Shown here: positions 5,480 to 18,203 of the stretch, one piece after another
How the letters are laid out: each line of letters begins with the position of its first letter
Numbering within the stretch: position 1 is the first letter of the stretch
Assembly: GCA_040390065.1 (NCBI GenBank)
Contig: JAZJZE010000009.1
Location: forward strand, 32,001-96,000
DNA: 64,000 bases
Origin: a bacterium
GTDB lineage: Archaea; Thermoplasmatota; E2; JACPAO01; JAHFTW01
Direction of reading: 5' to 3'
The notes under the pieces: model-generated
Seen by the model: the letters and a program-made list of their open reading frames with translations, nothing else
Databases searched by the model: none
Told to the model about the DNA's origin: nothing
Position numbers and translations under genes: made by a program

Positions 5480-5753
5480 CTAGAGGTCATTGCATAACTG
5501 CCAGGGTGCCTGCGTCGTTTTCCGGGCTTCGCAATCCTGGCGATGGCGGCCGCCGGCGGGCCGGAAGCCCGCCAAGGCCGCCAGCGCCAGGAGTGTGTGG
5601 CCGGAAAACGACCCGGAGGGCGCGCCGCTTTGCGGCGGATTGCGGGGTCACCTCGGCCTCGGCGTGGCCAGGCCACGCAGTCGGCCAAACTTCCTTACAC
5701 TCCTTGCAAACCGGCGCGCGCAGGCTTCCTGGAAGTTATGCAAGGACCTCTAG
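5480..5753 (-). mobile_element. MITE family A, copy 2 (inverted, 274 bp)
   Basis: ctaGAGGTCATTGCATAACT...AGTTATGCAAGGACCTCtag; interior is the reverse-complement homolog of copy 1. Confidence 0.8.
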
Positions 5754-6955
5754 CGGCGCGTGCTGCGGCGGAACGAGGCCGTGGAGCGCGTATGCATGAC
5801 GAGCTTGACGGCGACGAGGAGGCCGACGGCGGTGCCTGCGACGGCCAAGATGACGTCCTGAACTGGGTACTGCGGCGGCTTGGGGCGGCCGACGGCGGCG
5901 GACACGCCGGTGGTGCTTTCGAGGTTCTCCGTGCACGGGCTCATCTGGGCTCTTCCCTTGAGTCCGAACAGGACTGAATCCCACCACATGTTGAGGTCGA
6001 AATCGCTCGGCGGGGTCATCTCGATGTCGACTGCATAGTGGCCCGTGGCCATCTTGCCCGTCACTTGCAGGCCGTACATGCCGAGGTGGTCCAGGTCGAA
6101 GGGCAGGTCCACCTTGCCGTTCGTCGTCGCGTCAAAGGCCACCGTCTGGTTTGCCACCGCCGCGCCGATGGGCGAGAGCACCGTGAACGTGAGTTGGTTC
6201 AGGCCGGGCGGAGCGTCGGCCGACGTCGTGACGTGGGCGACGGCCTTGCCGCCATACTTCACGTTGGCAAACGGCCGGAACGCTTTGTACTCGGGCGCAT
6301 AGGAACCGAGACCCGCCGGCAGGTTGTCGGGCGATTCCGTGTGGAAGGTGGCCGGCTTCGGCGCCGCTCCGGTGGGCGAACGGACGCGCAGGTGGAACTC
6401 GCTCTGGCCGGCCACAGGTTTGGCTGCCAGGGCGTGCGTCGCGTCGTCGCGCAGGCCGTCGTTGGCTGCGAAGAAGGTCGCCGTGAATTCCTCGCCGTCC
6501 CCCACGGGGTCGGTGAAGTTGGCGCCGTTGACGCTGATGCGGGCCGTGCCCCACGCGGCGGCGCTGGCGAGCACCGCGGGGTGGTCGGGGCCGTCGTCGA
6601 GGGCGCCATCCAAGGTGATGTTCGTGGCAATGCCGCCTTGCTTGTCGCCGCCGCCGTGGAAGCTGCTGACGTCGATGGTGACGGGCGTGATGCCGTCCAC
6701 GACGCCGACCATGCGCACGATGCCGTGTTCGCGCTCCGGCCGCAACTGGGCAAGGGCGCACCCGGCAAAGACTGCCGTCGGGTGGCCCGTGGGCGCGGAA
6801 CCCAACGCCATCACACCCGATCCGCTTCCTCCGAAAGCCATGTAGTAGGTGACGCCGTCGACGCGACCGTACCCGGATTGCACGTCTGCGGCGCTGGAAG
6901 AGATTGCCAAGGCCACGAGGGCGGCGCCCGTGATGAGGATGGAACGGGCGTTCAC
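5750..6955 (-). CDS. Secreted protein with C-terminal TM anchor
   Basis: Signal peptide after GTG 6955 (GTGA overlap with upstream stop); C-terminal TM plus basic tail. Confidence 0.75.
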   Translation of the reverse strand: MNARSILITGAALVALAISSSAADVQSGYGRVDGVTYYMAFGGSGSGVMALGSAPTGHPTAVFAGCALAQLRPEREHGIVRMVGVVDGITPVTIDVSSFHGGGDKQGGIATNITLDGALDDGPDHPAVLASAAAWGTARISVNGANFTDPVGDGEEFTATFFAANDGLRDDATHALAAKPVAGQSEFHLRVRSPTGAAPKPATFHTESPDNLPAGLGSYAPEYKAFRPFANVKYGGKAVAHVTTSADAPPGLNQLTFTVLSPIGAAVANQTVAFDATTNGKVDLPFDLDHLGMYGLQVTGKMATGHYAVDIEMTPPSDFDLNMWWDSVLFGLKGRAQMSPCTENLESTTGVSAAVGRPKPPQYPVQDVILAVAGTAVGLLVAVKLVMHTRSTASFRRSTRR

Positions 6956-7569
6956 GGGGCCACCTTGGACTTGCGCGCGACTTGCTCGATGGCCGCCGTG
7001 TCGTCCCAGCCGGCCTGGAACTTGGCCAGGAATGCCGCGATGCTGAGCGGGATAGCCCCGCCGGCCAGGGCGAAGCCGGCCCCGAGGGTCGTGCGCCAGT
7101 AGCCGTCGCCGCGCAACTCGCTTGTAAACGGCGCGCTCGAGATGCCGACGCTGGCCGGCAAGCCAAACCACGTGACGGCCAGGGCGCCGGCAAGGGCAAG
7201 TGTCGCCACGCCGGATGCGGCGAGGCTGACGAAGCGGGGCACGACACGCTGGATGCCGGGCACCTCAGCAAGGAACACGATGGCCAGGCCGACGGCGGCG
7301 GCGAGGCTGAGCCACGACATGTCGCGCAGCCACTCGGCGTGCTTGGCTGGCTCGGCAACGGGGATGTCGCCGCGGGTCGTGCCTGGTCCGTCGTCCAGGG
7401 TCTGCCGCTGCACGCCCGTGTCTTGGGGCGGTTCCAGGCCGTTCGGGGGCGTGCGGCGGCCGCTCGAATGTTCGGCACTGAACCACGGGGCCATGACGGA
7501 TCCGGCCAGCATGGCGCCGGCGGCCAGGGCAAACGCGAGGGCCCACCAGGACTTCTCGATGGGCCTCAC
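6952..7569 (-). CDS. Membrane protein (about 4 TM)
   Basis: Four hydrophobic segments; GGAGGTG SD and GTGA overlap. Confidence 0.75.
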   Translation of the reverse strand: MRPIEKSWWALAFALAAGAMLAGSVMAPWFSAEHSSGRRTPPNGLEPPQDTGVQRQTLDDGPGTTRGDIPVAEPAKHAEWLRDMSWLSLAAAVGLAIVFLAEVPGIQRVVPRFVSLAASGVATLALAGALAVTWFGLPASVGISSAPFTSELRGDGYWRTTLGAGFALAGGAIPLSIAAFLAKFQAGWDDTAAIEQVARKSKVAP

Positions 7570-9695
7570 AGGGCACCTCCGCAGGCACAAGCCCCGACGG
7601 CGATGGGCACTGGCGGCAGGGCGCTGCGTGACGGCGGCAGCGGCTTCATGGCGTCCATGTTCTCCAGGAGGCTCCGCTGCGGGTAGTGGATTCCCGGCAC
7701 GGGGAACTGCGTCGTCGGGTCGACCGTGAGCGCAGGCAGGTTGAGGACGGTCTGGGGCCCGAGGGTAAGGTCCACGGGGGCCGGCGTCGCCGTCGCTTGG
7801 TGGTCGTCGTTGCTGCCCTGGAAGACCCACAGCACGAGGTGATGGCCTCTCGGGACGTTGACCTCGAGCGGCTCGAATTGCAGGCGGGCGACGTACTGCG
7901 TGCCCGGGGTCAACGTCTGCATTGTCTCGCCGCCCGCATAATAGCGCAGGTTGATCTGCCCGTGGCCGATGATTGGGACGCCGACGGGGTGCCAGCGCGG
8001 GACGGCGGCACTCGGTGGGGCAGCATAGGGTGCCCGGGCCGTGCCGTTGGCGTCCATGTCGAAAAGCCAGATCCCCAGTTGACCCCCGTCCCCCTGCGGC
8101 ACGAACGGCAGGGTCGCCGTCGGCATGCCGGAGATGTAGAGGTCTTGGGTCAACTCGGGACCGACGAGCTCCAGGATGGTGCCGTCCGCGTTGGGTGTGG
8201 TCGGCATGAGGCGTACGGTGGCCGTCGTCGCTCCATTGGCCTCGAGCTTGAGGTCGCCCGAAAGTTGCAATGGTGTCCAGTCGGGCTTCGCGGGCGGGAA
8301 CGAGTCGGCGTTGCGCCACTCGCCGAGGTTGTCCTCCACTTGGATGGACGGGCCCAGGTCGTGCGTCCGGTCGCCCTTGAGGTAGTGGTCCAGCCAGCGT
8401 GACAGGACCTCGGCGAAGTCGAGGCGGCAAGGCATGCTCACCCAGTCGGGCGTCGGGGTCAGGCACCTCGAATCGGGAAGCGCGTGGTCCCACTGGCCGT
8501 ACCATTCCTTCATCGGCAAGCCCTTGGCGCGCAGGGCCAGGTTGAACGGCACGACGGAGTGCGGGTCGACGTTCCAGTCTTGCAGGCCGTGGATGAGGAA
8601 GATGGAGCCGTTGTATTGGTCCAGCACCTGTTGGCGGTGGTCACGGATGGTCCAGTAGTCGGAGCCGGCGCTGCCGCGGTCTCCGGTGAGGGCTGAGACC
8701 TGCCCCATGGCCGCACCCCGGAAGGCTTCGGGACACACCAGGTTCTGCATGTCCTGGTACGGTTGGCGGCCGTTGGCTTCGGGCTGCGGCGCCGGGAACC
8801 CGGGCCAGTACGGCCACGGCAGCGGGGGCGGGATGGGCAGCGGAGGCCACGCGGGCCAGCCGCCAGGGACCTGGTTGTACGGCCAGCCGTCGCTGAAGCC
8901 GGACCCCCAGTAGACGGAGGCGTGCATGTACGCGCCGCGTGTCTCCGGCGTGCCGTTGTGGAACATGAGGTCGTAGATGTCGGGCAGCCCCGAGACCGGG
9001 ATGATGGCCTTGAGGTGGGTGTTGCCCGTGGCCGCGACCTCCCACGGCGTCGAGCCGTCATAGGAGACGCCAATCATCGCGATGTTACCGTTCGACCACG
9101 GCTGCTCGCCAAGGTACGTGATGGCCTGGTCGAGGTCATGCATCTCGGACGGGCCCATGAGGTCCATGCAGCCGCCGGACGTTCCGGTGCCACGCACGGC
9201 CAGTTGCACGACGGCGTAGCCGCGCGGCAGGAAGTTGCTGAGGCTGAAGCGCGTCGTCTGGCCCGGCCAGTCGATGGTGTCGTCGACGAGCTGGTCGGCT
9301 TGGCAGGACATGGCGCCGCTCTTGCAGTGCTGGCCAATCTCGTAGTACGGCCCGGCGTCCACGATGACCGGCACCGTGCCGGTCACGTTCATCGGGCGCC
9401 AGATGGCCATCGTGATGAACACGGTGCCGTCGCTCGAGGTCTCGCCAAGCGGCGAGGCGTACGCCGGCAAGGTCGAGCGCAGGTGGATGACTTCGGGGTG
9501 GCCTGCGACAAAGGCGCCGGCCTGCAGCACCGTCGACGTCGAGCCGAACGTGTAATTGCCTTCGAAGACGCCGGGATTCTTGTACGGCGCATCGACGTCG
9601 AAGTCATAGTAAGGCTCAACGCCGCCGACGCAGCCCGACAGGGCCGCGATCGCCAGGAGGGTCAATGCAAACGCCACGCGGCGCCCGCCCTGCAA
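7566..9695 (-). CDS. CocE/NonD family (peptidase S15) hydrolase lipoprotein
   Basis: Lipobox LSGC, RGTGTSGG, nucleophile motif GVSYDG, HGLQDWNV, WDH; start uncertain (TTG 9695 or GTG 9677). Confidence 0.85.
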   Translation of the reverse strand: MQGGRRVAFALTLLAIAALSGCVGGVEPYYDFDVDAPYKNPGVFEGNYTFGSTSTVLQAGAFVAGHPEVIHLRSTLPAYASPLGETSSDGTVFITMAIWRPMNVTGTVPVIVDAGPYYEIGQHCKSGAMSCQADQLVDDTIDWPGQTTRFSLSNFLPRGYAVVQLAVRGTGTSGGCMDLMGPSEMHDLDQAITYLGEQPWSNGNIAMIGVSYDGSTPWEVAATGNTHLKAIIPVSGLPDIYDLMFHNGTPETRGAYMHASVYWGSGFSDGWPYNQVPGGWPAWPPLPIPPPLPWPYWPGFPAPQPEANGRQPYQDMQNLVCPEAFRGAAMGQVSALTGDRGSAGSDYWTIRDHRQQVLDQYNGSIFLIHGLQDWNVDPHSVVPFNLALRAKGLPMKEWYGQWDHALPDSRCLTPTPDWVSMPCRLDFAEVLSRWLDHYLKGDRTHDLGPSIQVEDNLGEWRNADSFPPAKPDWTPLQLSGDLKLEANGATTATVRLMPTTPNADGTILELVGPELTQDLYISGMPTATLPFVPQGDGGQLGIWLFDMDANGTARAPYAAPPSAAVPRWHPVGVPIIGHGQINLRYYAGGETMQTLTPGTQYVARLQFEPLEVNVPRGHHLVLWVFQGSNDDHQATATPAPVDLTLGPQTVLNLPALTVDPTTQFPVPGIHYPQRSLLENMDAMKPLPPSRSALPPVPIAVGACACGGAL

Positions 9696-9699
9696 GGCC

Positions 9700-11715
9700 T
9701 CACGCTCCGGTGGCTGCCTTCGGGCGGGCCTTGGGCACGACGCGCACGGTCGGCGCATTCGTGGCAAGGGCCAGGGCGGCTTCCAGGTCGCCGACGAAGG
9801 AGATCTGGACGCGGTCCTTGTAGACCTGGTTCAAGAGGACGTCGTTGCGGTTCGCCGAGGGCACGACGACGTGGTTGTAGCCATTGTCCACGGCGCTCTC
9901 GATCTGTTGCGTGACACCGCGCACGGCGCGCAGCCCACCGCCGACGGCGAGTCCGCCGATGAGGACGACGTCTTGGCGCACCGGCAGCTTGCGCAGGGCC
10001 GAGATGGCACTGACCGCCAGGGCGACGCCGCACGCCGTCGCGTCGACGCCTTCCTGCGGCACGAGGCTCTGCAGGTGGATGTCGCTCGTCGAGATGACGT
10101 CTGGCGCCAGGGTCTTGAGGAGCGACGCCACCGTCTGGCACTGCGTCTTGCCGGAGTCCTCGATGCCGCCGCCGAACTCGATGTGGCCGCCTTGGCGGCT
10201 GATGGGCGGTGTGACGACGGCTGCGATGGGGACCATGAGGCCGGCGGGCTCGCCGACCTCGCCCGTGCCGACGACGCCGGCGCCGACGGCGCGGCCGATG
10301 GCGGTCCCGGAGGGGACTGCGACGTCGTGGTCGTGGCGCGCGTCGAGGGCCGACTGCGCGATCTGCTGCTCGAGGCTGCGGCTGAGGATCTTGGCGCGGC
10401 GCACGTCGTCGGACGTGACGGCCTTGCGGCCTTGGCTCTGGGCGATGTCGCCGGCGGTGCGCACGAGACCTCCGAGTTCACGCAGGCGGAGGGTGAGTTT
10501 GCCGCGTTGGCCGCTGCGGCGCTGGCCTTCCAGGATGACTTCGGCGATGGCGTCGCGTTCGAAGTGCGGGATGCGGCCGTCGCGGGTGACTTCCTGGGCC
10601 ACGAAGCGGCACAGCTTGAGGCGGTTGTCGTGCGTGTCCGGCATGCTGGAGTTGACGTAGACTTCGTAGCCGTAGCCGCGGATGCGCGAGCGCAGGGCGG
10701 GGTGCATGCCCTTGTGGACGCCATCGGGCGGCTGCACGGCGTCGAGGTTGCCGGCGGCAACAAGGATGAACTCGCAGGGCACAGGGTCGGTGCGCACCAT
10801 GGCACCCGAGGATGTCTCGGATTGGCCCACGATGGAGTATTGTCGGTCCTGCATGGCCGTGAGAAGCGACTGCTGCGAGTCGAGGCGCAGCACGTTGATC
10901 TCGTCGATGAACAGGATGCCCTTGTGGGCGCGGTGGATGGCGCCGATTTCAACCCGCTCGTGGGTGGGCGTCTCGAGGCCGCCCGACTGGAACGGGTCGT
11001 GGCGCACGTCGCCCAAGAGGGCGCCGGCGTGCGAGCCGGTGCCGTCGACGTACGCAGCGTGGGTCTCCTTCTTGGGATCGTGGCCGATAAGGAGTTTCGG
11101 CACGGCGAAGACGACGGAGTCCTTGCGCTGCTTGAAGATCATGAAGGCGAACAATGCGGCCAGCGTCAGCACGCCGAAGGCCATGATGTCGGGTTCGGTC
11201 TTGTGGAAGAAGCCCATGTAGATGCCGAGGCCGAGGAGGCCGCCGATGGCGGCGTAACCGATGACGGTCATGGCGACCTTGCGGCGGCGGGCGCGGCGGC
11301 GCATCGTCGTCAGGACGGTCGGGCCCTTGCCGGCGTCGACGCTGGCGATGCGCGGCTGGTTCGGGTCGGCGGCGTTGTGGTAGCTCATCACGTCCGAGAG
11401 TTTCTCGGGCGGCAGCATCTCCGACATGGCCTTCGCGATCATCGACTTGCCCGTGCCCGGGTCGCCGATGAGCAGCAGGTGGCGCTTCTGGCCGGCGGCC
11501 TTCTGCGCGGCGGCGACGGCGTGGTCTTGGCCGATGACCTGTTCGATGAGTGTTGCGGAGACGGGGACATCGTTGGAGGACTTGATGGTCGTCTGCTTGG
11601 CAATCCATTCGTACGGGTCGGTGATGAGTGCACCGTTGGTCGGAGCCTTGGCGGCGCCGTTGCCATTTGCGCTGGCGCCGTTGGTCGGGGTCTTGGGGTT
11701 CGTTTCACGGGGCAT
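9700..11715 (-). CDS. lonB: LonB-family membrane AAA+ protein with degenerate protease active site
   Basis: Walker A GDPGTGKS, 2-TM insert, HDPFQSGGL, Walker B FIDEI, RSRIRGYG; GDSA replaced by ATAC and catalytic Lys replaced by Gln. Confidence 0.9.
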   Translation of the reverse strand: MPRETNPKTPTNGASANGNGAAKAPTNGALITDPYEWIAKQTTIKSSNDVPVSATLIEQVIGQDHAVAAAQKAAGQKRHLLLIGDPGTGKSMIAKAMSEMLPPEKLSDVMSYHNAADPNQPRIASVDAGKGPTVLTTMRRRARRRKVAMTVIGYAAIGGLLGLGIYMGFFHKTEPDIMAFGVLTLAALFAFMIFKQRKDSVVFAVPKLLIGHDPKKETHAAYVDGTGSHAGALLGDVRHDPFQSGGLETPTHERVEIGAIHRAHKGILFIDEINVLRLDSQQSLLTAMQDRQYSIVGQSETSSGAMVRTDPVPCEFILVAAGNLDAVQPPDGVHKGMHPALRSRIRGYGYEVYVNSSMPDTHDNRLKLCRFVAQEVTRDGRIPHFERDAIAEVILEGQRRSGQRGKLTLRLRELGGLVRTAGDIAQSQGRKAVTSDDVRRAKILSRSLEQQIAQSALDARHDHDVAVPSGTAIGRAVGAGVVGTGEVGEPAGLMVPIAAVVTPPISRQGGHIEFGGGIEDSGKTQCQTVASLLKTLAPDVISTSDIHLQSLVPQEGVDATACGVALAVSAISALRKLPVRQDVVLIGGLAVGGGLRAVRGVTQQIESAVDNGYNHVVVPSANRNDVLLNQVYKDRVQISFVGDLEAALALATNAPTVRVVPKARPKAATGA

Positions 11716-11717
11716 GG

Positions 11718-13787
11718 TCACTTTCCTCCTTTGGCGATGGACACGGAGAGGTCTTTCCTGCGGTTGGCGAAGAAGGCGCCGGCAATGAGTGCGGCCGTGG
11801 TGATGCCGGCAGCGGGCAGCAGGACGCCGGTGGCCGTTGAACTCGTGGCCGCGGCTGGAATCGGTGGCGGGGGTCCCTGGCCGGCCGCAAACGCCGGCCC
11901 GCGCAGGTTCGTCACCTCGACGAGTTCCGCGAACTGGACTTGGCCGTAGTCGCCGATGGCGAAGAACTCGCGTTGGTAGTGCAGGCTCAGTTCGTCCTTC
12001 TTGCCGCCGGGCTCGGTGAAGTTGAAGTTGCCTTCGGGCAGTTGCAGGAAGTCGTCCTTCGTGTCGTCGTAGGCGGCCTCGGGCGCCTGCATGAGGTCGG
12101 GGTCGCTCGTGCGGTTGCCGATGTTTCCGATGTCCATGTCATGCTTGTAGAGGACACCGTAGTTCTCGTCCAGCGCAATGATGGTCTTGTGCAGGTGCGG
12201 CGAGAGCGCGGTCTTCGGGACGCCGACGGACGTCCCCGAGGACTGGATGCGCGTCTTGAGGATGAGGTGCACGACGCCCGAATATTCACGGTAGATGAGG
12301 TCCTGCACGTTCGCGTCTGTCACGCGGAACGAGGGATTCACGGGCAGGATCTTGTCGCCGTACGAGGTGAGCGGGTTCCAGTCGATGCCATGGCGATCCT
12401 CGGTGTAGTGGCCAAAGGCCGCAAGGAAGCGCAACTGGCCATCCGTCGTGGCCTGTGTGGAGAGGAGCGCGAGGCGGCCGTCCGAGCGCACGCCAAGCCG
12501 GGCGTTGCCGCCGACGATGGGGGAGGCGCCGAGGTATTGCGGCTTGCCACCCGATGGGTCCATGCGGAACAGTTCGACCGTGCCGGGCACCGCGGTGGGG
12601 TCCCAGCGGAACTGGCCTTCCTCGGGCGCGACGACGCAGCCCACGTACAGGTATCCGTCCGACAGAACTGGATTCGTGCTCGAGGAGCACGGCCCAATTG
12701 CCTCGTCGCGGCTTTGGTAGCGGTACGTGTCGTTCACTTCCAGACCCGTCCACGCGACGCCGATGACGCTGCGCGGCGTGCCGGGCTCGAGCGGCTGCGA
12801 GGTGTTGCCGGCCGCGGCGGCGGTGGCACGGCGGGGCGCGGATGCGATCGCCGATCCGCCACTGGTGGCATGGCCCGCTGCTGCGCGCTGGGTGTCGGTC
12901 ACGCCGGGCGGCGGGCATGTGACGGGCGTCTGCAGGCCTGCCATGTTGTTGCTCTCCTCCCAGGCGGTTCCGTCGGTCTTGACGTAGTAGCCCGCGGCCT
13001 CGACGGCATCGGGGTCGGCGTTGCACGGCGGCGGCGCGATAGGCTTGGCAAGATGTTCGCTCCACACGAGGGTCATGTTGTCCTGTGCGGGGTCGAAGAG
13101 GAACCAGAGTTGGCTGATGGCGCTGTCGTTGTACACGGGGCCCAGGAATTCGGCGTGGTATTCGCCGTCCTGGTGACTGTTGATGTTGGACAAGTCGCTG
13201 AACTTCTGCGCCGCGAGGATGTACCGGAACCCGGTCTTTCCGCCAGGCTCGGCGTACAGGGAACCGACGAAGACCTGGCCGTACGGGTTGATGGTGATGG
13301 CGGTCGTCTCGCCGAAGGCGCTTTCGCCGACCTTGCCGGGGGGAAGGAACGGGTTGTCGGTCCACGACGCTCCGCCATCGCGTGAGGTGAACGTGGTGAA
13401 GTCCTGGCCGCAGCGACTCTTCGTGGTGGGTCCGCGACCGTTGCAGAAATTGATGCCCGTCGCGCCATACGAACCGCCGTGCAGGCTGGCGATGACGAGG
13501 TTGTTCGGGTCCGACGGGTCGACCGCGATGGAGGGGTCGCCCATCTCGTCCTGCTCGTCGACGGCGCGTATGGGACAACCGACGCCCGGGGAATTGGTGC
13601 TGATGCTGCCGCGGCCTTGCGGGCAGGCGATGAAGATGGCATACTCGACGCCCGTGCCGCCCGCCTGGGCCGCAGCCGGGGGCGAGGCGGAGATGGGCAT
13701 CAGGCAGAGGACCAGGAATCCGGCCAGGAGAAGCCTCCAAGCCGCCGGGTGCCGTGCCGTGGTTGCCGCGTCGGGATGGCGGGCCAT
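11718..13787 (-). CDS. Secreted Asp-box/sialidase-like protein with C-terminal TM anchor
   Basis: Signal peptide, DPSIAVDP, SRDGGASW Asp-box, C-terminal TM plus RRK. Confidence 0.75.
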   Translation of the reverse strand: MARHPDAATTARHPAAWRLLLAGFLVLCLMPISASPPAAAQAGGTGVEYAIFIACPQGRGSISTNSPGVGCPIRAVDEQDEMGDPSIAVDPSDPNNLVIASLHGGSYGATGINFCNGRGPTTKSRCGQDFTTFTSRDGGASWTDNPFLPPGKVGESAFGETTAITINPYGQVFVGSLYAEPGGKTGFRYILAAQKFSDLSNINSHQDGEYHAEFLGPVYNDSAISQLWFLFDPAQDNMTLVWSEHLAKPIAPPPCNADPDAVEAAGYYVKTDGTAWEESNNMAGLQTPVTCPPPGVTDTQRAAAGHATSGGSAIASAPRRATAAAAGNTSQPLEPGTPRSVIGVAWTGLEVNDTYRYQSRDEAIGPCSSSTNPVLSDGYLYVGCVVAPEEGQFRWDPTAVPGTVELFRMDPSGGKPQYLGASPIVGGNARLGVRSDGRLALLSTQATTDGQLRFLAAFGHYTEDRHGIDWNPLTSYGDKILPVNPSFRVTDANVQDLIYREYSGVVHLILKTRIQSSGTSVGVPKTALSPHLHKTIIALDENYGVLYKHDMDIGNIGNRTSDPDLMQAPEAAYDDTKDDFLQLPEGNFNFTEPGGKKDELSLHYQREFFAIGDYGQVQFAELVEVTNLRGPAFAAGQGPPPPIPAAATSSTATGVLLPAAGITTAALIAGAFFANRRKDLSVSIAKGGK

Positions 13788-15298: not shown

Positions 15299-16618
15299 TC
15301 ACCACTTGACCCAGGCGAGACCGACGGCCATGAGGAGCCCCGCGACGAGGTGCAGTTGGATGGTCATGGCGCACGCCTTTGCGAGGCTGCGCTTGGCGTA
15401 GTTCTGGATGACTTTCATGATGGCGTAGGCGCCAAGCAGCGCGGCGGCAAGGCCGATGAGCGCGCCCTTCGTGAAGACGCCCGCCGCAACGAGGGCGGCC
15501 AGAGCCGCAAAGGCGCCGAGGACGATGACCAGGTAGCCCCAACGCGCACGGCGCGTCCCAAGGGTCGCAACGAGGTGGTTCTTGCCCGTGTGCAAGTCGC
15601 CGGCCACGTCGGGGAACTCGTTGACCCAGAGGATGGCGAGCGTCAGCAGGCCGATGGGGATCCCTACGAGGAAGGTGTTGACGCTGACTTGCCCGGAGAT
15701 GCCGTAGATGGCGCCGGCGGTGAGGAGCGGACCGAAGTTGAGGAACGTGGCCAGTTCGCCGAGCCCGCGGCGGGCCGACAGGCGGATCGGCGGCGCCGTG
15801 TAGAAGAAGCCCATGAGCGCCCCGACGGCGCCGAAGGCACCCACCCACACCTTGCCCATGGCGATGAGCGCCACGCCGAGGGCGGCTGCCACGACGATGC
15901 TCGCCGTGCCGACGAGGAACATGCCGCGCGGCGTGATGAGGCCGAGTTCGATGGAGCGCGAGCCGCCCGAGAACGGCAGGAAGTAGTCGTTGTTGGCCTG
16001 GTCGGTGCCTGCCCGCCAATCCCAGTAGTCGTTGAACGTGTTGGCCGCCAGGTGCAGTGCCAGACCGCCAGCGAGGACGAGCGCGAAGGCAACCCAGTCG
16101 AGCGTCATGGTGGGCTGCGTGGCGATCCAGGCCGCCGCGAGGAGGATGGGCACGAGCGTTGCCGTGAGGAAAGGCAGGCGGCCGATGACGACGCCCTTGA
16201 AGATGCGCGTCGCGAAGGCGGTCTTCGGCGTCGCAGCCGCCGGGTCGACGGAATCGAGGACCGTCGTGGTGCCGCAGTAGCCGGCCTGCTCGCCCTCGGT
16301 GCGGCCCCGGTGGAAGGTGGGCGTGATGCGGATGTGCGCGGCGAACCTGCTGCCGTCCTTGCGCACGAAGACCGTGTCCGTCTCAAAGGAGCCCTTCGTG
16401 CGTGCCTCCTTCAACCAATGCGGGACGTGGCCGAGCACGACCTCGCCGGGCGAGAACAGGGACACGCGGCGCTTGCCGATGACCTCGTCCGGCGCGTAGC
16501 CGAAGATGTGGTGCGCGCCCTCGTTGTAGGTCTCGATGCGTCCTTCCATGTCGCAGGTGATGACGCTGACGGCCTCTTTGTGGGGTTGGAGGCGGGGCGG
16601 AGAGGGTGCCTTGGCCAT
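15299..16618 (-). CDS. menA: PAS domain fused to MenA-like (UbiA family) prenyltransferase
   Basis: N-terminal PAS (NEGAHHIFGY, RKDGS); NTFNDYWD, YTAPP.RL..RGLGE and NEFPDVAGD motifs. Confidence 0.85.
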   Translation of the reverse strand: MAKAPSPPRLQPHKEAVSVITCDMEGRIETYNEGAHHIFGYAPDEVIGKRRVSLFSPGEVVLGHVPHWLKEARTKGSFETDTVFVRKDGSRFAAHIRITPTFHRGRTEGEQAGYCGTTTVLDSVDPAAATPKTAFATRIFKGVVIGRLPFLTATLVPILLAAAWIATQPTMTLDWVAFALVLAGGLALHLAANTFNDYWDWRAGTDQANNDYFLPFSGGSRSIELGLITPRGMFLVGTASIVVAAALGVALIAMGKVWVGAFGAVGALMGFFYTAPPIRLSARRGLGELATFLNFGPLLTAGAIYGISGQVSVNTFLVGIPIGLLTLAILWVNEFPDVAGDLHTGKNHLVATLGTRRARWGYLVIVLGAFAALAALVAAGVFTKGALIGLAAALLGAYAIMKVIQNYAKRSLAKACAMTIQLHLVAGLLMAVGLAWVKW

Positions 16619-16976: not shown

Positions 16977-18203
16977 CTACTCGGCCGGGACGTCGAGGCG
17001 GACCTTGCGCATCTTGGCGGCGGCCTTCTGCCAGCCCTCGACGCGCTTCGAAGTGATCTTGGTCCCGAGCACGTTGGTCTCCAGCGTGTCGAGGTAGTTG
17101 TTGACTTGGTTGGCGATGGCGTCGGGGCTGCGGCGCTTCAGTTCCGCGATGCCTTGGATGCCGGCGCGGGCTAGGGCTTCGGCGTACTGCTTGCCCACAC
17201 CGCTGATCTTCATGAGCTCCCCCATGTGCTGCCACTGTTCGACGGTCTTCTTCGGGACGCCGACGCGCTTGCCGAGGGATTCCGGCTCCTCGTAGGCGAG
17301 GCGGGCCGTCGTGAGGACGCCGGCTTGGGCGAGTTTGGCGCCGTAGATGCGGCCGATGCCTTCGATGTCCTCGACGTTGTGGATGTCGCCCGTGTAGTCG
17401 TAGTAGGCCCGCGATGCGGACCCGTTCGTGCCCGCGCGCTTGGCGAGGCGTTCCTCGAGTTCCGAGATGAAACCGCGGCCGTCGGCCTTGCGGCCGGTGC
17501 GCGGGACGGCTTCCTCGGTCGGCTCAGCCTCGGTCGCGGCACCGGTCGGCCAGTACTTCTCGCGCACGTCGGCGGGAAGACGTGCACGAACGTCCTCGGG
17601 GATGGAGGCGAGGCGCTTCTCGTCCATGACGACGACCGGCTTCTGCGAGTTGCGCAGCGGCAGTTCGGCGGCTTGGCCGTTGGGCGGCCCAGCAAGCAGG
17701 ATGCGCAGCTTGAGTTGGTTGCCCTGGTTGTCGATGGGGATGTACGTGTTCGTGTACAACGCCGACTCGACGGTGCGGGGCGTCACGAACGGGTACAGCT
17801 TGTTGCGGCGCTCGTACTTGCCGTACGCGTGGTACATCTGCGGCAGCGCCCCGAGGTTGTAGACGACCATCTCCGGGCCCTTGCCGAGGCCGTCGGGTTC
17901 GCCGAGTGTTGCCTCGAAGGCGTCGCGGGCGGCGTTCTCGGCGGCAAGACGGGCCGCTTCTTCCGCCTCGGCGCGCCGGTTGCGGCGTTCGTCGCTGGAG
18001 CGGATGAGGATGGCAAGAAGGATCAGGCAGACGAGGGCGGCAAGGACGACGCCGACCCAGAGCGCGACGGTCGGAGCGTCTTTCACCCACGGGAAGTCGG
18101 CCTGGTCGGTCGACTTGGCCCAGAGGAGGAACAAGAAGAACATGGTGACCAGGAACAGGACCACGAAGGAGACGGTGCCAAGGATCCGTTTGCCGCTGGC
18201 CAT
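16977..18203 (-). CDS. Membrane protein with C-terminal DUF4332-like helix-hairpin-helix domains
   Basis: Two N-terminal TMs; IEGIGRIYGAKL and ISGVGKQYAEAL HhH repeats. Confidence 0.75.
   Translation of the reverse strand: MASGKRILGTVSFVVLFLVTMFFLFLLWAKSTDQADFPWVKDAPTVALWVGVVLAALVCLILLAILIRSSDERRNRRAEAEEAARLAAENAARDAFEATLGEPDGLGKGPEMVVYNLGALPQMYHAYGKYERRNKLYPFVTPRTVESALYTNTYIPIDNQGNQLKLRILLAGPPNGQAAELPLRNSQKPVVVMDEKRLASIPEDVRARLPADVREKYWPTGAATEAEPTEEAVPRTGRKADGRGFISELEERLAKRAGTNGSASRAYYDYTGDIHNVEDIEGIGRIYGAKLAQAGVLTTARLAYEEPESLGKRVGVPKKTVEQWQHMGELMKISGVGKQYAEALARAGIQGIAELKRRSPDAIANQVNNYLDTLETNVLGTKITSKRVEGWQKAAAKMRKVRLDVPAE

Follow-up and report, generated by a model that had tools for sequence, protein, structure and literature searches.

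A dyad-less LonB paralog and its co-encoded surface protein in uncultured Thermoplasmatota

The LonB* locus

The window analysed here is a stretch of 64,000 nucleotides from a Thermoplasmatota genome assembly (GCA_040390065.1; contig JAZJZE010000009.1, positions 32,001 to 96,000 of the forward strand). It carries a paralog of the archaeal membrane protease LonB in which the Ser-Lys catalytic dyad is lost, hereafter named LonB*, and, directly upstream on the same strand, a partner gene that we call f1. Coordinates given without a contig are window positions, and the motif counts come from a survey of 66 dyad-less sequences (22 of subclade A, to which LonB* belongs, 33 of subclade B and 11 of subclade C) against 31 canonical LonB sequences.

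9700..11721, reverse strand: LonB*, open reading frame (ORF) of 673 aa from GTG at 11721 or 671 aa from ATG at 11715
11718..13787, reverse strand: f1, 689 aa, directly upstream of LonB*
11443..11466, reverse strand: Walker A motif GDPGTGKS, residues 86-93; GxPGTGKS in 66/66 dyad-less sequences
11131..11325, reverse strand: transmembrane (TM) hairpin within the AAA+ module, residues 133-197, from the hydrophobic sequence; helices 133-172 and 179-197 in the AlphaFold2 (AF2) model
10900..10914, reverse strand: Walker B motif LFIDE, residues 270-274; D273 and E274 invariant in 66/66
10669..10692, reverse strand: Arg-finger region RSRIRGYG, residues 344-351; HPALRSRIRGYGYE invariant in 66/66 dyad-less and 31/31 canonical sequences
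10027..10053, reverse strand: degenerate Ser motif EGVDATACG, with Ala563 (10033-10035) on the catalytic Ser column
9892..9921, reverse strand: degenerate Lys motif RGVTQQIESA, with Gln606 (9904-9906) on the catalytic Lys column

The ATG at 11715 lies 9 nt after a GGAGG and is a likelier start than the GTG at 11721; an identical protein in a database record has 671 aa. A first-pass annotation of this DNA had described a full-length frame with intact motor motifs and TM insert, and translation of the coordinates agrees: 9700..11721 is uninterrupted by stop or frameshift, the TM hairpin of two long hydrophobic helices lies between the Walker motifs A and B, and both sensors, 1 and 2, are likewise intact. 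The protein scores 646.7 bits against TIGR00764, above the family cut-off of 516.6, over profile positions 4-592 of 608, and it matches Pfam Lon_C (PF05362, 41.4 bits against a cut-off of 21.1) and LonB_AAA-LID.

LonB* has the same domain order and fold as archaeal LonB (Thermococcus onnurineus 3K1J, the Archaeoglobus fulgidus 1Z0x series, TIGR00764), namely an AAA+ module in which a two-helix TM insert separates Walker A from Walker B, then a LID and Lon_C, with identical ATPase motifs and 43-48% identity to the T. onnurineus chains over the Foldseek aligned columns. The AF2 model (pLDDT 83.4, mostly >90 in the protease domain) matches 3k1j with a TM-score of 0.83 by target and the A. fulgidus protease domain with a root-mean-square deviation (rmsd) of 2.2-2.3 Å over 188-190 columns. 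LonB* thus retains the fold of the archaeal membrane Lon and very probably assembles likewise.

Loss of the catalytic dyad

The dyad columns were assigned by HMMER alignment to protease-domain chains of A. fulgidus LonB (1z0c and related entries, E 3e-26) and to the LonB of T. onnurineus (3k1j, E 8.7e-162). The 3k1j chain, presumably an engineered mutant, carries Ala at both dyad positions, and the valid references are the 1z0c-type chains and canonical paralogs. In the alignments to the solved chains, EGVDATACG is matched to EGVEG(D)SAS and RGVTQQIESA to GGVTQKIEAA; Ala563 falls on the column of the catalytic Ser and Gln606 on that of the catalytic Lys. The canonical LonB of the same genome (EGVEGDSAS...GGVTAKIEAA) places both residues on the same columns, with the same spacing of 43 residues in the two proteins. 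The substitutions Ser to Ala and Lys to Gln at this spacing, as proposed in the first pass, are therefore confirmed. LonB* lacks the Ser-Lys dyad of an S16-type peptidase ([E/D]GDSA[S/T]...K, 43 residues apart), of which [E/D]GDSA[S/T] is given as the defining LonB motif in PMC2605481.

Besides the dyad, LonB* differs from archaeal LonB in the relaxation of a further 27 of 29 canonical-invariant positions of the protease domain. Across the two sets of sequences, 38 positions are at least 97% invariant in canonical LonB and less than 60% so in the dyad-less proteins, and 29 of these lie in the protease domain.

The loss is shared by the relatives of LonB*. Among the best 120 database relatives (119 without the query itself), 114 span both dyad columns and none of the 114 has Ser and Lys together, which leaves no close ortholog that keeps the dyad. 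All 120 are Thermoplasmatota metagenome-assembled genomes (MAGs) wherever the source names the organism. A single dyad residue is kept in some of 123 rows, as Gly and Lys in seven and as Ser and Met or Ser and Gln in 11.

Canonical and dyad-less paralogs

In the source assembly (50 contigs, 2.68 Mb in all, completeness 89%), TIGR00764 matches three genes, one canonical LonB and two dyad-less paralogs:

C9:488932-490773 of the source genome (G000): canonical LonB, 863.5 bits, EGVEGDSAS...GGVTAKIEAA
C11:22013-23851: second dyad-less paralog, 649.1 bits, GADVSALGA...EGITQMIEGA, the dyad columns holding Ala and Met
The window copy: LonB*, 646.6 bits in this genome-wide search

The presence of an active-type LonB elsewhere in the genome, which had been anticipated, is thereby established; its gene is on the contig that also carries LonB*, at a distance of about 445 kb. 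The TIGR00764 scores of 41 related genomes are bimodal, with one copy per genome at 860-947 bits and extra copies at 617-714 bits. The high-scoring copies that were fetched (n=32; 31 full length, one partial) all have Ser and Lys in an almost invariant motif. None of the 39 low-scoring copies, which come from 28 genomes and include the window and C11 copies, has both residues. At least one dyad-less copy occurs in 28 of the 31 genomes of the window's order, and the remaining three are 74-83% complete.

On a wider scale, 301 genomes of the phylum with completeness of at least 80% were sampled, and 296 of them have a LonB-family match. All 15 sampled genomes of the window's order have at least two matches, the 64 genomes of other orders of the same class have at most one each, and only five of the 301 have at least two outside the window's order. 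Four of these (G045, G064, G071 and G092, of families f14 and f31) hold six extra copies, all dyad-less; the fifth, G236, holds two LonB copies at canonical-level scores. A single, lower-scoring LonB match is seen in a few genomes, G122 and G275 among them. The number of dyad-less paralogs in one genome reaches three or four (G002, G025), and each of them has a cognate f1.

The dyad-less relatives are labelled 'ATP-dependent protease LonB' in public records and also pass the TIGR00764 equivalog cut-off. More distant representatives of 50%-identity clusters include 44 that keep Ser and Lys and about 11 that do not, several of the latter with badly degenerate C-terminal domains. Eight distant LonB-like proteins (P0137, P0146, P0152, P0155, P0160, P0167, P0202 and P0256) have an intact Walker A (GTGKS; GIGKS in P0202) but lack a recognisable Ser motif, which suggests further independent LonB-like ATPases with degenerate protease domains beyond the present lineage, some of the alignments being possibly unreliable.

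Phylogeny of the dyad-less lineage

In a FastTree phylogeny of 107 rows, from which P0018, L038, L073, L074 and P0137 had been dropped as partial or aberrant, all 72 dyad-less rows stand on one side of a single branch with support 98, and a single change accounts for the distribution. A quick IQ-TREE analysis of 58 rows recovered the dyad-less split with an SH-aLRT of 100 from all columns, from ATPase-only columns and from protease-only columns. Its recurrence on single-domain columns means that the grouping does not stem from convergent decay. The trees, in which the root is not established, are consistent with a single origin of the dyad-less lineage. It comprises at least three subclades together with deeper branches:

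Subclade A (window copy): Ser site GVDAxAxG, Lys site RGVTQxIExA, dyad columns variable
Subclade B (C11 copy): Ser site GADVxALGA, Lys site EGVTQMIEGA, Met at the Lys column in 33/33
Subclade C: Ser site AEGIG, Lys site RATLQRIEAA, Gly and Arg at the dyad columns in 11/11

In subclade A the Ser column, which is Ser in 31/31 canonical sequences, holds A13/G6/S2 and others (A/G/S/P), and the Lys column, Lys in 31/31 canonical sequences, holds Q9/K4/M3 and others (Q/K/M/V/L/A/D/E). In subclades B and C the dyad columns are fixed to new residues and are not drifting, a possible sign that the former active-site pocket is under some new constraint. An invariant Glu stands one position ahead of the fixed dyad-column residue in subclade C (L044 or L002 are example loci for B/C).

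Conservation of the motor and constraint on the dead domain

Walker A, the Asp-Glu of Walker B, the sensor-1 Asn, HPALRSRIRGYGYE and LRLRELGG are invariant in all 66 dyad-less sequences, as they are in the 31 canonical ones. Near the former dyad, subclade A keeps fixed structural residues (G565, A567, S574, T604, Q605, E608 and A610). Selection was compared by the Nei-Gojobori method in 28 pairs of eight genomes holding both paralogs:

Protease domain: dN/dS 0.39 in subclade A, 0.20 in canonical LonB
C-terminal part of the ATPase: 0.19 in subclade A, 0.14 in canonical LonB
TM insert: 0.92 in subclade A, 0.69 in canonical LonB

Only the comparison of paralog with paralog is meaningful in these ratios, as dS is about 0.5-1.3 at very high GC3 and near saturation. 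The evolutionary rate of the dead protease domain is about double that of the live one, yet the domain is clearly still constrained. A conserved dyad-less clade, the existence of which the first pass had left to be checked together with its dN/dS, is thus found.

These data bear on whether LonB* is simply a pseudogene in decay, or else an artefact of assembly or annotation. One related copy would fit such a view: the subclade C copy L038 (G025:C64:12123-13958), the sole interrupted one, has an in-frame TAA that splits it into ORFs of 83 aa and 569 aa, and is possibly a pseudogene or a sequencing error. However, 44/45 loci have an intact LonB* ORF, the ATPase motifs do not vary, dN/dS stays well under the value for the unconstrained TM insert, and the lineage is conserved over many genera and several families. 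The conservation data refute decay and artefact alike, and we give them a negligible probability.

A further question is whether LonB* might still be a peptidase with a non-canonical pair, formed by the neighbouring Thr or Cys, or by another conserved Ser with Lys536 or His549. The members that keep one dyad residue would fit this, and so would the new residues invariant in subclades B and C, which indicate a pocket that is not merely drifting. However, comparison with canonical LonB reveals no Ser, Thr or Cys specifically conserved in the dyad-less lineage, and the flanking Thr and Cys are variable; the residue beside Ala563 is Cys in only 12/22 of subclade A, Leu in B and Ile in C. Moreover, S574, K536, D547 and H549 show the same conservation in canonical LonB, which does not use them as its catalytic pair; the two dyad columns are free to vary in subclade A, and many canonical-invariant positions of the cleft are relaxed. 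On conservation we reject the adjacent Cys or Thr as an alternative nucleophile, and we regard any remaining peptidase activity as very unlikely. The refuting conditions named in the first pass, close orthologs with Ser-Lys or a replacement nucleophile such as the adjacent Cys, thus leave the pseudoprotease reading standing.

We therefore hold with high confidence that LonB* is peptidase-dead and under selection. As judged from sequence, it is an AAA+ pseudoprotease in which the catalytic motif is lost, the AAA+ module is intact under purifying selection and an active paralog is kept. The corresponding claim of the first-pass annotation, a pseudoprotease with an intact AAA+ motor, is upheld by the invariant ATPase motifs and by a dyad-less clade that is conserved and selected. 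From motif conservation, ATPase activity and a motor role in a membrane complex are predicted.

The partner gene f1

The TGA of f1 overlaps the GTG of LonB*, and the last codons of f1 (AAA GGA GGA AAG) supply the GGAGG before the LonB* ATG. Clustering of neighbouring genes placed a homolog of f1 beside LonB* in subclades A, B and C. When adjacency was recounted by profile HMM, independently of ORF picking, f1 was found in 43/45 dyad-less loci, and the other two have less than 125 nt of upstream sequence. Where at least 1.5 kb of upstream sequence is available, f1 is adjacent in 39/39 loci, upstream and co-oriented in 38 and directly downstream in L049. In contrast, f1 is absent from 31/31 canonical-LonB loci, 26 of them with at least 600 nt upstream; an obligate f1 neighbour is what sets LonB* apart from canonical lonB in gene context.

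The junction itself is tight. Among 42 same-strand junctions, the LonB* start lies -4 to +3 nt from the f1 stop in 26 of 29 scripted calls, 15 of which are 4-nt overlaps; in the other 13, for which there was no scripted start, inspection by eye placed an ATG or GTG within about 10 nt of the f1 stop, with two overlapping. At one subclade B locus (L058, G010:C11), counted among the 38 with f1 upstream, LonB* has an in-frame N-terminal extension of about 230 aa with several hydrophobic helices. The ATG of this extension directly adjoins the stop of f1, and the extension represents either a polytopic membrane domain fused to LonB* or a small gene that went unrecognised.

In the f1 tree the LonB* subclades reappear, with five label changes for six groups, the minimum possible, and the pairing is kept in at least three deep subclades and three taxonomic groups. 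The phyletic distributions also match. Of the 301 phylum genomes, f1 occurs in 20, namely 15 of the window's order, four others with a verified dyad-less LonB, and G122, and it was not found in the remaining 281. G122 is a particular case; its sole LonB match is at the dyad-less score level (E 4.4e-197), and its f1 homolog (G122:C65:85479-87113) contains one in-frame TGA.

Every f1 member has an N-terminal hydrophobic signal or TM segment, a large ectodomain, a Pro-rich stalk, a C-terminal TM helix and a basic tail of 12-16 residues; in the window protein, the C-terminal TM helix spans about 652-674 and the tail has 15 aa. The ectodomain has four invariant Cys. No Pfam, NCBIfam, PADLOC or PDB-profile match was found for f1, and its 54 database relatives are all unnamed or called 'hypothetical protein', those with an organism name all being Thermoplasmatota. 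The AF2 model (pLDDT 80.4, pTM 0.78) is a beta-propeller, for which the best structural match is YncE (VIA Z 25.1, rmsd 3.0 Å over 298 residues). Further propellers (WD40, lectin, Ycf48, sialidase) match with Z 19-23, and no single family stands out.

Sialidases are defined by a catalytic set of an Arg triad, a Tyr/Glu pair and an Asp. BNR/sialidase hints for f1, which serve as leads only, come from the Atlas (feature search, score 0.90) and from a single SRDGGASW motif that resembles an Asp box. The 44-sequence f1 alignment has a single invariant Arg (R125). An assignment of f1 as a sialidase is unsupported, since 0/44 members match the BNR_2 or BNR Pfam at E<0.1 and the Foldseek TM-scores are 0.27-0.47.

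Proposed role of LonB*

Lon rings thread their substrates through the pore of the ATPase into the protease chamber; in LonB, the ring is kept at the membrane's cytoplasmic face by the TM hairpins. Conserved adjacency, overlapping genes, mirrored trees and matching distribution, the four features found for LonB* and f1, are typical of subunits of a single complex. LonB* probably functions with f1. Moreover, on balance we favour, with moderate confidence, the view of LonB* as an AAA+ motor that is proteolytically dead and devoted to this one surface protein. LonB* and f1 would be made from one transcript by coupled translation, and the LonB* ring would lie at the cytoplasmic side of the membrane, its pore facing the bilayer. 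From there it may use ATP to act on f1, or jointly with it, by way of the f1 TM helix and tail, as a dedicated unfoldase, a dislocase, or an assembly or force-transducing motor, while the inert protease domain would be kept as an oligomerisation scaffold. ATPase activity, formation of hexamers, contact between LonB* and f1 and an effect of the motor on f1 are all predicted steps of this scheme. A dedicated AAA+ motor is the most economical explanation because the motor is intact, the chamber is dead, and the co-translated single-pass partner exposes only a short tail to the cytoplasm.

More specific pictures are tentative. It is possible, if doubtful, that the motor pulls on f1 or transduces force. 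Equally speculative is a two-component trans-membrane machine in which the dead ring would grip the TM helix and tail of f1 and perform ATP-driven mechanical work, which might serve extraction or recycling of f1, its assembly, or the transmission of force or signals to the cell surface. Such a machine would have been duplicated and diversified, with at least three cognate pairs as the outcome and more than one of them in some cells, and one branch would be linked to secreted S15 peptidases.

The adjacency of f1 might instead reflect inherited operon structure or co-regulation, with LonB* acting as a general membrane-protein chaperone or unfoldase. Some of the synteny around LonB* is mere inheritance, as the downstream genes differ by subclade, and a prediction of the LonB*-f1 complex gave no verdict (LonB* 40-460 with f1 620-689, run with alignments; the score of 0.00, for which controls were not run, is evidence neither way). 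However, f1 alone stays beside LonB* across the subclade splits and taxonomic groups, and it does so with overlapping stop and start, mirrored trees and a matching distribution, as is typical of subunits of one complex. We judge this explanation rather improbable.

Alternatively, LonB* could be a non-catalytic subunit in mixed hexamers with canonical LonB, tuning its activity or choice of substrate, with f1 as adaptor or substrate; the non-catalytic ClpR subunits of chloroplast Clp cores offer an analogy. Canonical LonB is present in the source genome and a LonB-family match in nearly all genomes of the phylum sample, the Arg finger and the inter-subunit ATPase elements are identical in both types of paralog and would make mixed sites chemically possible, and the protease domain, which mediates ring contacts in Lon, is still constrained. 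Nevertheless, the near-universality of canonical LonB makes its co-occurrence uninformative, its gene lies beside f1 in none of the 31 loci and far from LonB* in the source genome, the TM insert and the protease surfaces are strongly diverged between the paralog types, and the several dyad-less paralogs with their own f1 in G002 and G025 fit separate dedicated complexes better. An obligatory, coupled and co-diverging f1, together with the several cognate pairs, is the strongest clue to function, absent from the first pass, and favours a partner-linked machine over a modulatory subunit of the housekeeping LonB, and mixed hexamers appear unlikely to us, though not negligibly so.

Several points weigh against a motor dedicated to f1. 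Mixed hexamers are compatible with the same data and do not exclude a link to f1. As related genomes are not independent, fewer independent observations stand behind the pairing than the adjacency counts suggest. The tails of f1 carry subclade-specific motifs (NRRKxxxAAxAKGx in A, VKRRVAHFAVAEDK in B, KRKKTAVEAPSL in C), which are not evidence of recognition at the protein level because the terminal codons encode the GGAGG-type ribosome-binding site of LonB*. The near-saturated dS noted above limits the selection argument. Finally, the source genome has a third f1 paralog (C1:342710-344551; L083 4911-6845) without a LonB beside it; it is nearest to the f1 of subclade A, at about 50% identity, and may function on its own or, in trans, with the window LonB*.

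No natural fusion of f1 and LonB was found among longer proteins (1179-3365 aa; eight matches at 41-47% identity), a blank that is weak evidence. Seven of these eight LonB homologs of 1184-1567 aa (P0323-P0330), from Nanoarchaeota, Micrarchaeota and others, contain intein and LAGLIDADG domains.

Comparison with known systems

To our knowledge, most archaea have LonB as their sole membrane-bound ATP-dependent protease. Dyad-less Lon-like domains have been reused elsewhere as non-catalytic modules fused to P-loop ATPases, in RadA/Sms, ComM/YifB and BrxL. LonB* matches these at E 1e-7 to 1e-17, over one domain each; they are soluble DNA-related or defence proteins of other architectures. A second comparison is FtsH with HflK/HflC, a membrane AAA+ protease with single-pass partners that lie for the most part on the opposite side of the membrane. 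This sets a precedent for TM-anchored extracytoplasmic proteins that work with a cytoplasmic AAA+ ring, although FtsH is proteolytically active, HflK/C are SPFH-domain proteins and not propellers, and no homology of f1 to them was found.

The best functional analogy is FtsHi of chloroplasts, FtsH paralogs without HEXXH in which the AAA+ module is intact and essential, acting as an ATP-driven motor in a membrane complex according to PMC8197885. Like LonB*, they are membrane AAA+ protease paralogs that have lost the catalytic motif and coexist with active paralogs. Unlike LonB*, they derive from an M41 zinc metalloprotease and not from an S16 Ser-Lys enzyme, belong to eukaryotic organelles and not to archaea, and have no f1-like partner; FtsHi forms hetero-hexamers with FtsH12, whereas for LonB* a hexamer is a prediction.

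LonC (MtaLonC of Meiothermus taiwanensis, TTC1975 of Thermus thermophilus) is a third Lon lineage, related to LonB, that keeps the hexameric chamber, as described in PMC3391209. LonC proteins form the second-best group of structural matches to LonB* (TM-score about 0.6) and have likewise lost one of the two activities. LonC is the mirror image of LonB*: its Ser-Lys dyad is kept, its AAA-like module is ATPase-dead and it has no TM segment, whereas LonB* keeps the ATPase and TM insert and loses the peptidase.

In the open-access papers and bioRxiv preprints searched, mostly at the level of titles and the starts of abstracts, neither a dyad-less LonB lineage nor its pairing with f1 is described. 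Pseudoproteases are known as a class; what is new is a lineage of archaeal Ser-Lys Lon-family pseudoproteases, its diversification and its obligate surface-propeller partner. The Lon scaffold, like that of FtsH in chloroplasts, would have been turned into a pure AAA+ machine by a lineage that dropped proteolysis and kept the motor, and the coupled propeller protein provides a concrete, testable handle on the role of such a motor at the archaeal membrane. Since the dyad-less proteins pass the equivalog cut-off and are named proteases, the protease inventories of these uncultured heterotrophic archaea are inflated. For dyad-less relatives the name LonB protease is an annotation error, and a separate family model is warranted.

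Wider neighbourhood of LonB*

Two further genes follow LonB*:

7566..9677, reverse strand: S15/CocE-NonD family hydrolase, downstream of LonB*, probable GTG start at 9677, 22 nt past the LonB* stop
5750..7171, reverse strand: f6, predicted surface protein with a C-terminal TM anchor; start uncertain (the listed ORF begins at the first start codon)

The hydrolase matches Peptidase_S15 (145.3 bits), PepX_C and TIGR00976 (141.3 bits against a cut-off of 66.3), and its sequence has a lipobox-like signal, MAFALTLLAIAALSGC (...LSGC), and a GVSYDG motif. An S15 gene lies directly 3' of LonB* in 11/11 subclade A loci; a deeper A-like group, found in other families, has it upstream of f1. The S15 gene is followed in 8/11 subclade A loci by f6, which has no Pfam or NCBIfam match; past the S15 gene, six subclade A loci have a small TM protein, f7. 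The downstream genes of the other subclades are acyl-CoA carboxylase genes in B and genes for BNR_2 or FG-GAP proteins in C, which leaves f1 as the only neighbour universal across the subclades. At subclade B loci (e.g. L045 1149-4691) the carboxylase genes encode biotin carboxylase, biotin carboxyl carrier protein and carboxyltransferase (f2 in 16 loci, f3 in 14), and they probably represent inherited synteny without a functional link.

A reading of the locus as a defence system was rejected, as PADLOC gave partial-domain matches only (BrxL at E 7e-10 over the Lon_C part, and an RtcR-type AAA) and nothing for f1, the S15 gene or f6. A scan with sigma-70 promoter and terminator models, which are not applicable to archaea, gave nothing above the shuffled expectation. 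Elsewhere in the window, on the reverse strand, 15299-16618 encodes a protein of 439 aa in which an N-terminal PAS domain is fused to a UbiA-family prenyltransferase, an unusual sensor-enzyme fusion, and 16977-18203 encodes a protein of 408 aa with an N-terminal TM segment and C-terminal DUF4332/helix-hairpin-helix domains.

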